IMG/VR virus record: IMGVR_UViG_3300029039_000040
DNA length: 12,461 nucleotides
Source of the DNA: a virus
Direction: 5' to 3' (one strand)
Below the pieces are notes generated by a model, which did not search any database, had not been told where the DNA came from, and worked only from the letters and a program-made list of their open reading frames with translations. Both the position numbers and the translations under genes were made by a program. Below are positions 855-9,379 of this stretch, piece after piece; position 1 is the first letter of the stretch, and every line of letters starts with the position of its first letter.

Positions 855-1264
855 CGTGCACTATAGGTACTTGCAGAAGTGTATTATATGCAAACCAAAC
901 TTTATAAGATTGCGTATAGCAGGGTGCGTAGTCTTGCGGTTTTTACGTTTCACCGTTCAATGGGTTCATAGGCAAGCATATACAAGCCAACGAGTACAAA
1001 GTACAAGTATTAAAAGGCAACCTGTACAGGGCACGGACGCTTTAAAGCAAAGCCAGACACTTACTGTCCCCTAAACCGGTAAACTGGCTAAGCTTGAGTA
1101 TTTATAGTGTACAGCTATGGCAATTAATACCCCCCTAGTCGCAAAGACAAGCGGGCAAGAAGTAATCAAACGCCCACCATAATAAAACCTCTCTAGGGTT
1201 TTTATATGGAGGGGGGGTTACTAATAACAATGTAAACAAATAAACAAAGTTAGGAGGTTATAGC
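838..1264. other. 427-bp non-coding region between HNH and terS; candidate cos / packaging-initiation region
   Basis: No credible ORF; the predicted 856..1074 ORF has no RBS. It contains C6 (1130..1135) and G7 (1211..1217) tracts, direct repeats (GTACAA x2; GCTATRGCAATTAAT at 831 and 1114) and an A/T stem-loop AAAACCtctctaGGGTTTTT (1183..1202). In HNH plus P27-TerS plus Terminase_1 phages the cos site lies between the HNH and terS genes. Confidence 0.4.
1230..1243 (+). promoter_or_regulatory. Conserved leader motif ATGTAAACAAATAA, copy 1 (35 nt upstream of the terS start)
   Basis: The 14-mer ATGTAAACAAATAA is shared with 9251..9264. The core ATGTAAACA also occurs at 3943 and 9368, each time in an operon leader. 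Confidence 0.4.
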
Positions 1265-1612
1265 GTGGACTTTGACAAAGATAAAGTTATTAACGCAGAA
1301 AAGCGTAAACTTAAAAAACTTATAAAGACTGTGCCAGCAGACAAGACCACTATAGCTAATAGCCTTGTGACTGAACTAGCTTTTATGGCTGGTACACTGG
1401 CAGAACTACGCCAGCATATCAACGACGAGGGAGCTATAGAGCACTTTAAACAGGGCAAACAAGAGTTTTTTAGAGAGAGCCCAGCACTAAAAAGCTACAA
1501 CATGACTATTAACCGTTACGGCCAGATATACAAACAGCTTAACGACCTTATGCCAAAAGCAGACCCTAAAGCCCAGGAGAGCGAGCTTTTAGACTTCCTA
1601 AATGAGGGCTAA
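1265..1612 (+). CDS. terS: Terminase small subunit, P27 family
   Basis: 115 aa with a GTG start and RBS taggaggtta 7 nt upstream. SLVTELAFMAGTLAELRQHINDEGAI...KQ....NPALKSYNMTINRYGQIYKQL matches the P27-family small terminase pattern (LV..YC.AY....EA...I...G........NP......LA.E.GLTP). It lies immediately upstream of terL with a 3-nt gap. Confidence 0.8.
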   Translation: MDFDKDKVINAEKRKLKKLIKTVPADKTTIANSLVTELAFMAGTLAELRQHINDEGAIEHFKQGKQEFFRESPALKSYNMTINRYGQIYKQLNDLMPKADPKAQESELLDFLNEG

Positions 1613-1615
1613 TAC

Positions 1616-3256
1616 ATGAACTACGTAACAGAGTATGTAAAGCAGATAGAGGCGGGCAATATCATTACCAGCAAGAGGGTTTATAAGCAATATAAAAAGC
1701 TTGCAGAGGAAATAGCAAACCCTGGGCAGTATATTTTTGACGAAAAAAAGGCTAACAGGCCTGTAGAGTTTATAGAGCGTTTTTGTAAGCACAGTAAGGG
1801 AGAATGGGCGGGGCAACCTGTACGCCTGGAACTATTCCAAAAGGCCTACATTAACGCTCTTTTTGGCTTTGTAGACAAAGAAACAGGCTACAGGAGATAT
1901 AAAGAAAGCTTTTTCATGGTAGCCCGTAAAAACGGCAAAAGTACCATGTTAGCGGGCTTAGCCCTGTATATGCTACTGGGAGACAAAGAGCCAGGGGCAG
2001 AGGTATACAGCACGGCGACAAAAAAAGACCAGGCTAAAATAGTATTTGACGAAACTTGTCACATGGTACAGCAAAGCCCAGAGCTTAAGAAATTCATAAA
2101 AAAGCGTAAGAGTGACCTTTATTTTAGCCTTGCTATGTCTAAGTTTATGCCACTGGGTAAGAACAGCGACACCTTAGACGGCCTAAATAGCCATTGTGTT
2201 ATTATGGACGAGTTACACAGCGTAAAAGACCGTAACTTATACGAGGTTATGAAACAATCACAGAGCGCAAGACGCCAGCCACTGCTTATTATGATAACGA
2301 CAGCGGGAACGGTTAGAGAGTGTATTTTTGACGATATTTACGACTATGCCACAAAGGTAGTAGACGGCGTTATAACAGACGACACTTTTTTACCTGTTAT
2401 ATATGAGCTGGACAGTAAGGAAGAGTGGCAAGACCCTAAAGCATGGCTAAAGGCTAACCCTGGCTTAGGCAAAATTAAAAAGGTTACAGACCTTATAGAC
2501 AAGGTGGAGAGGGCAAAACAGAGCCCTAAAGACCTTACGGGAGTACTTTGTAAAGATTTTAACGTGAGGGAGACATTAAGCAACGCCTGGCTAAGCTTTG
2601 ACGACATAAACAACGAGGAAACTTTTAACCTGGAGGACTTTAGAGGGGCTTACGCAATAGGCGGGGCAGACCTAAGTATAACTACAGACCTTACTTGTGC
2701 TACTTTGCTTATGATTGACAAGGCCACGGGTAAGCGTTGCGTTACTCAAATGTACTGGTTACCTAGAGATAACTTTTATAAGCGAGTACACCAGGAAAAA
2801 ATACCTTATGACAAATGGCTAGAGCAAGGGCTACTTAGACTGTGTGAGGGCAATACCATAAAATATAGCGACGTTACGGCTTGGTTTTTAGAAATGGTAC
2901 AGGAGCACGGCATAACGCCCGCCTGGGTTTACTATGATAGCTACAGCGCCCGTTACTGGGTTGATGAAATGGAAAACTACGGCTTTAACATGGTTAGATG
3001 TATTCAAGGGGCTAAAACGCTTAGCTTGCCTATGCAGAACTTAGGGGCAGACTTGCAGGCTAAAAAGGTAATCTACAATAATAGCCCTATGCTTAAGTGG
3101 TGCTTAACTAATACAGGAGTGCAGACAGACCGCAACGGCAACATAGTACCAATTAAAAACCAGAGCCCTAAACAGCGTATAGACGGCACGGCAAGCCTAT
3201 TAGACGCTTACGTAGGCCTATACGAGCATTACACAGAGTTTATAAACGCTTTATAG
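1616..3256 (+). CDS. terL: Terminase large subunit (Terminase_1 family; ATPase plus nuclease)
   Basis: 546 aa. Contains the Walker A-like VARKNGKST, LAGLALYML...GAEVYSTATKKDQAKIVFDE, and a C-terminal nuclease region with conserved acidic residues. Classic Terminase_1 architecture. Confidence 0.95.
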   Translation: MNYVTEYVKQIEAGNIITSKRVYKQYKKLAEEIANPGQYIFDEKKANRPVEFIERFCKHSKGEWAGQPVRLELFQKAYINALFGFVDKETGYRRYKESFFMVARKNGKSTMLAGLALYMLLGDKEPGAEVYSTATKKDQAKIVFDETCHMVQQSPELKKFIKKRKSDLYFSLAMSKFMPLGKNSDTLDGLNSHCVIMDELHSVKDRNLYEVMKQSQSARRQPLLIMITTAGTVRECIFDDIYDYATKVVDGVITDDTFLPVIYELDSKEEWQDPKAWLKANPGLGKIKKVTDLIDKVERAKQSPKDLTGVLCKDFNVRETLSNAWLSFDDINNEETFNLEDFRGAYAIGGADLSITTDLTCATLLMIDKATGKRCVTQMYWLPRDNFYKRVHQEKIPYDKWLEQGLLRLCEGNTIKYSDVTAWFLEMVQEHGITPAWVYYDSYSARYWVDEMENYGFNMVRCIQGAKTLSLPMQNLGADLQAKKVIYNNSPMLKWCLTNTGVQTDRNGNIVPIKNQSPKQRIDGTASLLDAYVGLYEHYTEFINAL

Positions 3257-3268
3257 GAGGTAAAAAGC

Positions 3269-3706
3269 ATGCAGAAACTAAAAGACAAAAAAATAGTTAT
3301 TTATAAAAGCGGAACGTTTGAGGACGAGGACGGTTTTCAAACAGAGGGCTATATGCCAATACACCCACAGGCTAGCGTATGGGCTTATTTTAAACAGCTT
3401 TCGGCAAGCCTGCTTTATGCAAACAATACGACAACCACAAAAGAAGAATGTTTATTTAGGATTAACTGGACAGACGCTATATTAGCAAGCTACGCCAGCG
3501 ACTACAGAGTATACTACGACGGCCTTTTATACCAGGTAACCAGGGTAGACCCTTACGAGGGTTACAAGCGAGACCTTGCTTTATATTGCAAGCTTACGAC
3601 GGATAAATTAGGCACTATAGTACCTTACGACCCTACTAAACTGCCAACGCTTACAGATTATACTACAGCGGAATTTTTAACCAGTGTAGACCATAAGAAA
3701 CTATAA
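3269..3706 (+). CDS. Head closure / head-tail joining protein (Phage_H_T_join, SPP1 gp16 / HK97 gp7-like)
   Basis: 145 aa. KIVIYKSG.FEDEDGFQTEGYMPIHPQASVWAYFKQLS...ECLFRINWTDAI...DYRVYYDGLLYQVTRVDPYEGYKRDLALYCKL fits the head-tail joining consensus (RITIQ..DE.G..W..VWA......E....F.IRYR.DI..RI.Y.G..Y.I..V.D......L.L.C). RBS taggaggtaaaaagc upstream. Confidence 0.7.
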   Translation: MQKLKDKKIVIYKSGTFEDEDGFQTEGYMPIHPQASVWAYFKQLSASLLYANNTTTTKEECLFRINWTDAILASYASDYRVYYDGLLYQVTRVDPYEGYKRDLALYCKLTTDKLGTIVPYDPTKLPTLTDYTTAEFLTSVDHKKL

Positions 3707-3801
3707 AAGCTTTGTTTAAGGCCGTTTTTAGCCGTTTAGAGAGACTTTTAACCACAGACAATAAAAATACCTTAACACCATTAAAAAATTGATTTAAGGG
3801 A

Positions 3802-3823
3802 CATTTACGGGGCATTTACGGGG
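3802..3823. repeat. Tandem 11-mer CATTTACGGGG x2
   Basis: Two exact head-to-tail copies lying immediately 5' of the terminator stem. Confidence 0.7.
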
Positions 3824-3849
3824 CTTGCTTTTAAGGCAAGCTCTTTTTG
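3823..3849 (+). terminator. Rho-independent terminator after the packaging/head operon
   Basis: GCTTGC-ttttaag-GCAAGC stem followed by TCTTTTTGTGTTTATT. Confidence 0.65.
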
Positions 3850-9194: not shown

Positions 9195-9205
9195 AGGCAA
9201 TAAAG

Positions 9206-9245
9206 GCACATTGTAAAAAAATAAACAGTGTGCTTTTGTTTTTAT
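9206..9245 (+). terminator. Rho-independent terminator after the primase-helicase gene
   Basis: GCACATTG-(12 nt A-rich loop)-CAGTGTGC stem with one mismatch, then TTTTGTTTTTATT. Confidence 0.6.
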
Positions 9246-9248
9246 TAA

Positions 9249-9265
9249 ACATGTAAACAAATAAC
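9249..9265 (+). promoter_or_regulatory. Conserved leader motif ACATGTAAACAAATAAC, copy 3
   Basis: Shares ATGTAAACAAATAA with 1230..1243. A TATAAT hexamer follows at 9268..9273. Confidence 0.4.
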
Positions 9266-9285
9266 ATTATAATAAAGTAAATATG

Positions 9286-9314
9286 TTGATTTATAAACAT
9301 GAAAGTAGTACAAT
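9286..9314 (+). promoter_or_regulatory. Putative sigma-A promoter TTGATT-17-TACAAT for the portal/head operon
   Basis: TTGATT at 9286..9291, a 17-nt spacer containing TAAACATGAAA, and TACAAT at 9309..9314. A 7-bp inverted repeat TTACTTG-8-CAAGTAA lies just downstream at 9328..9349. Confidence 0.35.
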
Positions 9315-9365
9315 ATAGTAAAGTAGGTTACTTGTATATAAGCAAGTAATCAAAATTTAAAGGCT

Positions 9366-9379
9366 ACATGTAAACATTA
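9366..9379 (+). promoter_or_regulatory. Conserved leader motif ACATGTAAACATTA, copy 4, in the portal leader
   Basis: Shares the 12-mer ACATGTAAACAT with 3941..3952. Confidence 0.4.

Follow-up and report, generated by a model that had tools for sequence, protein, structure and literature searches.

Box-bearing leaders of a circular, head-encoding replicon

IMG/VR virus record IMGVR_UViG_3300029039_000040 is a 12,461-nt stretch of DNA, referred to as the window herein, in which a short sequence recurs in the leaders of the terS, plasmid-maintenance and portal operons. Bases 1–97 are identical to bases 12365–12461, a direct terminal repeat, and the window therefore represents a complete circular element of 12,364 bp. 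Every gene is on the + strand, as are the boxes, promoters, leaders and terminators described below. Together the genes provide a full head and packaging set along with a plasmid backbone consisting of ParA, a ribbon-helix-helix (RHH) protein, a Rep-like protein with iterons, and a primase-helicase. Neither tail genes nor an integrase were found among the annotated genes; as the element carries no tail genes, it is expected to depend on a helper. A megablast search with the whole element against phage and plasmid collections returned no match.

The sequence ATGTAAACA was found in four exact copies, at 1230, 3943, 9251 and 9368, all of them intergenic and on the + strand, against an expectation of 0.13 copies; at least four copies were reached in 0 of 200 shuffles. 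The four motif copies named in the original prediction are real in this form, with the full 11-mer, ACATGTAAACA, exact at only three of them (3941, 9249 and 9366) and the terS copy reading CAATGTAAACA. The shared strings of 12 and 14 nt that had been claimed were also recovered, ATGTAAACAAATAA at 1230 and 9251 and ACATGTAAACAT at 3941 and 9366, as was a pair of TAAACATGAAA copies at 3946 and 9294. The accompanying claim that such recurrence is very unlikely by chance was overstated for the window alone. When only the intergenic DNA of the window was shuffled and any 9-mer was allowed, a 9-mer with at least four copies arose in 5.6% of shuffles, a 9-mer common to three regions in 1.3%, and a 14-nt repeat in 2.5%. 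The original argument was too generous because these intergenic regions are only 25–41% GC, and the case against chance became overwhelming once relatives of the element were added. A scan of IMG/VR for the exact 16-mer ACATGTAAACAAATAA was uninformative, with 36 loci that were all unrelated save one (L001).

In the terS leader the box is double (1230–1246): ATGTAAACA, with its core GTAAAC at 1232, is followed by ATAAACA (1240), the two being 8 bp apart, and the Tandem Repeats Finder (TRF) reported two copies of TAAACAAA at 1233–1248. The double box lies 5 nt 5′ of the Shine-Dalgarno (SD) sequence AGGAGG (1252–1257), and the distance from 1230 to the terS GTG at 1265 is 35 nt, as predicted. 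Just 5′ of the box is a conserved G-rich hairpin, CCTCTC ... GAGGGG (1187–1214, + strand), which may be part of a cos/pac region or an attenuator. A CCCCTC..GGGGAGGGG hairpin directly abuts the first terS-leader box in nine relatives (L003, L006, L007, L008, L012, L013, L015, L016 and L103), and one to three boxes stand directly 3′ of the terS hairpin in eight of them (L003, L006, L007, L012, L013, L015, L016 and L103).

The par leader contains a sigma-70 promoter, TTGACA-17-TATAAT (3902–3930), that matches the consensus at 12 of 12 positions, belongs to the ORF109-ParA-RHH-HTH_17-Rep operon, and is conserved in the alignment of the relatives. Its box, ATGTAAACAT, with the long form GTAAACATGAAAAT, occupies 3943–3958, about +6 to +21 of this promoter, and ends 3 nt before the SD sequence AAGGAGG (3961–3967). 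The motif had been placed at about +4 of the promoter, which agrees with our assignment of the box to about +4 to +8; the gap from 3941 to the ATG at 3978 measured 37 nt rather than the 35 nt given before. At 4287–4300, across the start codon of ParA, the sequence GGAAACATGAAAAC agrees with the long box GTAAACATGAAAAT (3945–3958) at about 12 of 14 positions; it may represent an additional weak site or a coincidental likeness due to the SD and start context.

The portal leader (9195–9420) follows the primase-helicase gene and begins with an intrinsic terminator, GCACATTGT / ACAGTGTGC and then a T-run (9206–9243). Next is an array of 8-bp phased degenerate boxes (9245–9306), namely TTAAACAT, GTAAACAA, ATAACATT, ATAATAAA, GTAAATAT, GTTGATTT and ATAAACAT, whose units start at 9246, 9254, 9262, 9270, 9278, 9286 and 9294; it contains ATGTAAACAA (9251–9260) and a long box, ATAAACATGAAAGT (9293–9306). 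The head-operon promoter, TTGATT-17-TACAAT (9286–9314), overlaps the end of the array, with the box and the TAAACATGAAA copy at 9294 inside its 17-nt spacer. A further box, ATGTAAACAT (9368–9377), stands 44 nt ahead of the GTG of portal, at about +48 relative to the 9286 promoter, and also falls within the spacer of a weaker promoter-like sequence, TTTAAA-16-TATTAT (9356–9383). The 8-bp phasing reported earlier is real in this leader: autocorrelation at lag 8 gave z = 4.2 over 9243–9412, where no other lag from 5 to 12 was significant, and z = 2.2 for the array segment 9245–9306. The description of the sub-repeats as ACA(A/T)nTAA fits less well. A better description is a pseudo-palindromic unit of 10 bp, ATGT(A/T)(A/T)ACAT, with the core GTAAAC, sometimes extended to GTAAACAT(T/G)AAA. 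We consider the 9245–9306 array to be the best centromere/operator candidate of the element.

Two further observations concern this leader. An inverted repeat, TTACTTG-N8-CAAGTAA (9328–9349), lies just past the start predicted for the 9286 promoter; the relative L002 (97% identity) retains it with a longer loop, and it could be a second operator or an RNA hairpin. In L002 itself, a 24-bp tandem duplication, GTTATATGTAAACATTATTATAAT / GTTATATGTAAACATTATTAAAGA (2085–2132), doubles the box equivalent to window 9366–9377, and every box of this relative reads ATATGTAAACA, replacing ACATGTAAACA.

The remaining genes complete the map. The portal gene (9421–10623, GTG start) is followed by those for a prohead protease (~10786–11367), the major capsid protein (MCP; from 11370, wrapping to 236), a gp6-like connector (256–543) and an HNH protein (547–837). 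After a non-coding stretch of 427 nt (838–1264) come the putative terS (1265–1612, GTG start), terL (1616–3256), a head-completion protein (3269–3706) and a terminator (3820–3844), into whose stem run three tandem 11-bp units of ATTTACGGGGC (3792–3824) that are identical in the relative L118. The par operon begins with ORF109 (3978–4280, ATG start) and ends with the 430-aa Rep-like protein (5591–6883). Directly 3′ of the Rep-like gene are four 22-bp direct repeats, AAATCACTCGGAAGTGTTCCCT (6887–6975), then an AT-rich palindromic stretch and a GC hairpin (about 7030–7115), probably representing iterons plus an origin; no GTAAAC box was found in this region (6887 to about 7115). ORF72 (7128–7346) and the primase-pol/DnaB-type helicase (7350–9194) lead back to the portal leader. 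The HNH-terS spacer, 427 nt here, is 364 nt long in L002 and about 130 nt in most relatives. Its sole open reading frame (ORF; 856–1074) had no Pfam or PHROGs match, a terminator-like hairpin is present at 905–937, and the spacer may contain a cos site or a small RNA. An Rfam scan (E ≤ 1) yielded two sub-threshold chance matches only and no known RNA family.

Conservation of the box among Clostridia relatives

With the portal protein and the small protein encoded downstream of ParA as queries, we recovered more than 50 syntenic relatives of 12–14.5 kb, from Clostridia metagenomes and metagenome-assembled genomes (MAGs) together with one C. tetani isolate contig. They have in common the order terS-terL-head completion-(orf)-ParA-small protein-HTH_17-Rep-iterons-primase/helicase-(small orf)-portal-protease-MCP-connector-HNH, and the titles of the MAGs name Peptococcales, Oscillospiraceae, Christensenellaceae and Ca. 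Ornithomonoglobus, all of them Clostridia. The isolate contig (L115; QMBF01000022.1) is a 13,606-bp sequence from a Clostridium tetani assembly in which terL is split across the contig ends, consistent with a circle. A cultured candidate carrier strain is C. tetani GCA_004168545.1. In L115, an HTH_3 (Xre-type) gene (2057–2389) takes the place of ORF109 of the window, and the head genes include one of the integrase family (180 aa; 11671–12213), so the regulatory and maintenance modules vary across the family. In most relatives (L004–L013, L015 and L016) the head operon opens with a gene, located between its promoter and portal, for a small cold-shock-domain protein (KGFGFI motif); the window has no such gene there, and portal comes directly after the leader. 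The element looks like an extrachromosomal counterpart of cf-PICIs, the phage-inducible chromosomal islands that form capsids.

Motif discovery across related elements had been suggested as a check on the repeat. The core GTAAAC(AT) was found at homologous promoter and leader places in more than 50 relatives: in the par leader just 3′ of the consensus promoter, inside or next to the head-operon promoter, and in the terS leader. In the intergenic DNA of 25 elements, GTAAACA occurred 42 times against 4.2 expected (10-fold), TGTTTAC 20 times against 0.9, and TAAACAT 43 times against 5.5; Rep iterons aside, these were the most over-represented intergenic 7-mers, and the 188 kb of coding DNA of the same elements held only 30 copies of GTAAACA. 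When the sample was 51 elements, GTAAAC/GTTTAC was counted 238 times in non-coding DNA, versus a median of 24 for hexamers of the same composition. Alignment of the par leaders of six diverged elements revealed that GTAAACAT is invariant, 10–25 nt past the consensus promoter and directly 5′ of the SD site, while the rest of the leader is variable. L118, which is 93% identical to the window, has retained ATGTAAACATGAAA in its par leader with the leader 3′ of the box rewritten.

The position of the box relative to promoters is also conserved. The head-operon promoter of the relatives reads CTTGACGTAAACATTAAAGTATGnTATAAT, and TTGATTTATAAACATGAAAGTAGTACAAT in the window is the same arrangement with a 2-nt shift. 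Across the 51 elements, 74 of 93 strong promoter-like sites had a box within −80 to +70, and box positions peaked at 0 to +10 and at −30, in the spacer, for the sense orientation, and at −45 to −36 for the antisense orientation. Placement in the spacer, at the −35 flank or within the first +10 to +20 of near-consensus promoters corresponds to the classical positions of a repressor. A role for the box as a −35 or −10 element of an alternative sigma factor was rejected, as it has no fixed-distance partner element, occurs in both orientations and varies in register.

The box that follows the primase-helicase terminator reads GTAAAC in some relatives and GTTTAC in others, the terminator-then-box arrangement being homologous in the alignment, and the arrays of the relatives mix both orientations. 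Since the orientation flips at homologous positions, the box is a site in duplex DNA and not an RNA element. This bears on the possibility of an action within the mRNA leader, where the motif might enhance translation, be a site of processing or be bound by an RNA-binding protein. All four window copies are indeed sense-strand and in or near 5′ leaders, 3–45 nt upstream of strong SD sites; however, many copies in the family lie upstream of or inside promoters and are hence not transcribed, the arrays run in both orientations, and no Rfam family was matched. We regard an action in RNA as very improbable.

Well-sampled elements were of the GTAAAC type in 27 of 35 cases. L094, L097, L103 and L106 have instead a perfect 10-bp palindrome, ATGTATACAT, at the same homologous positions throughout the element, from which the window box ATGTAAACAT is one base away. 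As several separate sites in one element have the same variant, a cognate binder is indicated. The proposal that the leaders of the functional blocks have one regulator site in common is therefore strongly supported, both by conservation in more than 50 elements and by the one-base variant throughout four relatives. Tandem arrays of five to eight repeats with a 9-bp period were present in L004, L007, L008, L015 and L110. A comparison of window 9243–9412 with L004 2881–2953, L113 57–128, L110 6810–6891 and L115 7835–7940 gave a box phase of 8 bp in the window lineage and 9 bp in all relatives checked. The motif is thus real; it represents the window's form of a short box that a large family of small, plasmid-like, head-encoding Clostridia phage satellites has conserved at promoters and leaders, and its most likely binder is the partition protein of the element itself.

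The RHH partition protein as the probable reader of the box

Downstream of ORF109 the par operon encodes three proteins that bear on the identity of the binder. ParA (253 aa; 4293–5054) is a Walker-type partition ATPase of type Ib with matches to AAA_31 (E = 3.6e-59), CbiA and ParA_partition (E = 7.5e-30, below that model's cut-off); it has no N-terminal DNA-binding domain and carries a deviant Walker A motif, KGGVGKT, at residues 10–16. The parA stop overlaps the start, at 5054, of the gene for the small protein (104 aa; 5054–5368) that we propose as the box binder. Pfam and NCBIfam searches found nothing for this protein and a PDB sequence profile search gave a spurious RRM match only, while PHROG 582, 'Arc-like repressor', was matched at E = 3e-5. 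In its AlphaFold2 (AF2) model, residues 1–50 are disordered and a strand-helix-helix unit spans about residues 55–98 with pLDDT above 90, the β-strand being T-R-A-T-F-I-V. The top Foldseek matches of the model were CopG, Arc, MatP and VapB, with TM(target) about 0.8; their E values reached only about 0.5 because the RHH domain is small. The model thus predicts that the 104-aa protein has the RHH fold. Its family comprises 2,315 clusters with no Pfam model, and the source names given among the 120 best clusters listed were all 'hypothetical protein'. Within the otherwise variable disordered tail, G35-R36-P37 is invariant in an alignment of 51 RHH sequences, as would be expected if it stimulates ParA, and is a candidate for such a motif. 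The third protein is an HTH_17/excisionase-family DNA-binding protein (64 aa; 5384–5578; HTH_17 E = 5e-12; TIGR01764).

The original prediction had named the RHH protein, the HTH_17 protein and a helper-phage late activator as candidate binders, and of these the first is favoured. RHH and HTH_17 are inseparable in the capsid-bearing members because both genes are present in all of them, and the distinction came from ParA-RHH loci in which HTH_17 was not detected by profile HMM, at E ≤ 10 in L111–L113 and at E ≤ 1e-3 in L121 and L122, where Rep lies directly 3′ of the RHH gene. L113 has eight tandem 9-bp GTTTAC repeats 17 nt upstream of a TTGACA-17-TACAAT parA promoter, L121 has 16 such tandem repeats beside its par genes, and L111 and L112 have many GTTTAC/GTAAAC boxes clustered beside theirs, with 9-bp neighbours. 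As the HTH_17-less ParA-RHH loci keep these arrays, the RHH protein is preferred as the binder. L123 has 11 tandem 9-bp GTAAAC units upstream of its parA promoter; its contig ends 1 nt past the RHH gene, and HTH_17 is not assessable there. The compact 10-bp (pseudo-)palindrome would also suit one RHH dimer in a single major groove. The par-gene repeat array, tandem in the relatives, is represented in the window by the one par-leader box and the degenerate 8-bp phased array at 9245–9306, and the same repeat stands at several operons of the window: in the par/rep leader, in the head-operon promoter and leader, and in the terS leader. A further candidate, terS, was rejected because boxes also occur in L111–L113, in which no terS was found in the 8–20 kb examined.

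The boxes are present, conserved and positioned as described, and they co-occur with the gene for a protein of predicted RHH fold. From this we infer that the RHH protein binds the box, represses promoters and acts at a centromere, and we consider it probable that the partition protein of the element reads the box in both capacities, as centromere and as repressor site. In such a mechanism, the β-ribbon of one RHH dimer would enter the major groove at a single box with the R-T-I face of its T-R-A-T-F-I-V strand, and adjacent boxes, 8 bp apart in the window and 9 bp in the relatives, would be filled cooperatively. Occupancy of boxes that overlap the core promoters or the first about 20 transcribed bases would repress these strong sigma-70 promoters. 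Binding at the box at 3945 would autoregulate the par/rep operon, binding at 9245–9306 and 9370 would silence the head operon, and binding at 1232/1240 would affect the terS-terL leader. The phased cluster of the portal leader, like the tandem arrays of the relatives, would be the centromere where the RHH tail stimulates ParA, which is the mode of action of omega from pSM19035 and ParG from TP228. The loop between helices 1 and 2 of the window RHH protein reads KGYAFFEG versus KDYAYTER in the family, and this unusual loop might, speculatively, be linked to the changed dimer-dimer spacing of 8 versus 9 bp.

Several observations weigh against this assignment. The β-strand TRATFIV is identical in GTAAAC-type and GTATAC-type elements (L096 versus L103), so no obvious RHH difference accounts for the change from one box variant to the other, and in L017 the β-strand is divergent but the GTAAAC core has been retained. 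A clean tandem array of strong boxes is missing from the window, and its boxes at 3945 and 9370 have no clear neighbour, where most RHH proteins need two adjacent subsites. The HTH_17-less loci have only the 6-bp core in common with the window box, their flanks being different (GGTTTACTC versus ATGTTTACAT). Finally, HTH_17 is encoded in every capsid-bearing member, and in several relatives a 9-bp array lies directly 3′ of its gene.

In the strongest alternative, the box is bound by HTH_17, an excisionase/BldC-like protein. It would be a repressor that occupies direct repeats cooperatively, or else a factor of the AlpA/Q type that is loaded at the promoter. Tandem direct repeats are the binding sites of winged HTH proteins of the excisionase type, and the recognition site of Pseudomonas aeruginosa AlpA lies within a promoter. 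The HTH_17 gene adjoins the RHH gene in every capsid-bearing member, the protein has a weak BldC-family match, and the 9-bp array begins directly after its stop codon in L004, L007, L008, L015 and L110. Against it stand the GTTTAC arrays beside ParA-RHH in L111–L113 and L121/L122, where no HTH_17 was detected, and the 2-nt difference in box register that sets the promoter spacer of the window apart from those of the relatives, a shift that speaks against a loader dependent on geometry. The perfect 10-bp palindrome also suits a single-groove dimer better than a monomeric winged helix. We found no clean covariation between the HTH_17 recognition helix and the GTAAAC/GTATAC variants, a test that does not discriminate between the two proteins. 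On balance, HTH_17 is retained as a weaker candidate, and we think it unlikely to be the binder.

In a second alternative, the box is recognised by a regulator of the helper phage or the host, such as a late activator that couples the head genes to helper induction as in PICIs. The element has no tail genes and needs a helper, and Gram-negative PICIs are induced via alpA, which the helper activates (bioRxiv 10.1101/2022.09.08.507074). However, the box-bearing promoters of the element are already consensus or near-consensus sigma-70 promoters, with the box in the spacer, at the −35 flank or at +1 to +20, as for a repressor. The box is also at the element's own par operon, it is present in the ParA-RHH loci L111–L113, whose 8–20 kb examined yielded no gene for capsid or packaging, and it accompanies the element's own RHH gene across different Clostridia orders. 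This leaves the late activator of the original prediction unsupported and an external regulator improbable. Finally, recurrence by chance in AT-rich intergenic DNA, to which the moderate window-only statistics (1–6% with the intergenic-only shuffles) would still leave room, is effectively refuted by the family-wide enrichment, the invariance in diverged leaders and the variants at homologous positions.

Significance and comparison with known systems

Should the boxes indeed be bound by the RHH protein, segregation of the plasmid, synthesis of the partition protein itself and silencing of the capsid and packaging genes of a tail-less satellite would all be tied to this one small protein. The three promoter/leader sites and one 104-aa protein would then offer a concrete and readily testable handle on how such an extrachromosomal satellite stays quiescent and how a helper phage might rouse it, and a likely function and DNA site would be assigned to a large uncharacterised protein family found in gut and digester Clostridia and in C. 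tetani. More tentatively, and with considerable doubt, we suggest that these elements may form an undescribed class of extrachromosomal, capsid-forming, tail-less Clostridia satellites, or 'satellite plasmids', with the 13.6-kb C. tetani contig among them. In these the partition RHH protein would be the master switch, the centromere boxes would double as operators that silence the head and packaging genes while the plasmid is maintained, and induction of the satellite would require the helper to remove or out-titrate the ParB-like protein. Literature searches on TGTTTAC with ribbon-helix-helix proteins and on plasmid-borne cf-PICI-like elements found nothing relevant and no description of the family.

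Like cf-PICIs such as EcCIEDL933, the element is tail-less, falls in the range of about 12–15 kb and encodes MCP, protease, portal, head-tail connectors, HNH, terS and terL. Unlike it, cf-PICIs are chromosomal islands with int and alpA that are induced by AlpA, whereas the element is circular, a replicon that carries ParA-RHH, Rep with iterons and a primase-helicase; the control proposed here is repression by a partition protein. Regulation of the PICI or cf-PICI type does not match what we found, as the window has no integrase and its head promoter is sigma-70-like with a box in the spacer; HTH_17 is present in the window, but relatives that have no HTH_17 keep the box.

Among partition systems, the ParB of pCXC100 from Leifsonia is a type Ib RHH protein in which no sequence motif is recognisable; its binding to nine 9-bp direct repeats, which follow one another without interruption, is cooperative (PMC3074162). 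The 9-bp arrays of L113, L121, L004 and L110 are similar, although the repeat consensus differs (AGNTGGAAA), and pCXC100 has a single centromere for which no dispersed operator role is described. ParG of TP228, whose tail bears an arginine finger, recognises ACTC boxes of either orientation that are separated by 4-bp AT-rich spacers and so have an 8-bp period; in ParG/ParF parH-OF, an operator next to the centromere provides autorepression (PMC3130281). The RHH fold with a disordered tail and the degenerate boxes in either orientation, with AT-rich spacers and the 8-bp period seen in the window, are shared with ParG. The ParG core is the 4-bp ACTC and all 20 of its boxes are upstream of parFG, whereas the boxes here extend over three leaders; the host is a Firmicute rather than an enterobacterium, and the proteins are unrelated in sequence.

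The proposed wiring also resembles omega/delta of the Streptococcus pyogenes plasmid pSM19035, where the partner of a small ParA is likewise an RHH protein that binds the centromere and whose N-terminal tail is flexible. The arrays of 7-bp heptads bound by omega can have either orientation; they overlap three promoters and function as parS (PMC9499535). As in our element, these short direct and inverted repeats overlap the promoters of several operons, and in pSM19035 they serve one global regulator as both operators and parS (PMC9499535). The two proteins have no detectable sequence similarity. The omega repeat is 7 bp long (WATCACW) and forms contiguous arrays of 7–10, whereas the repeat here has a GTAAAC core with 8-bp (window) or 9-bp (relatives) spacing, and the window sites are mostly single or paired. 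The omega regulon consists of copy control and toxin-antitoxin genes; here it would instead include phage head and packaging operons. The mechanism is of a kind already known, and the novelty lies in the protein family, in the site, and in the wiring to the head and packaging operons of a plasmid-like satellite.

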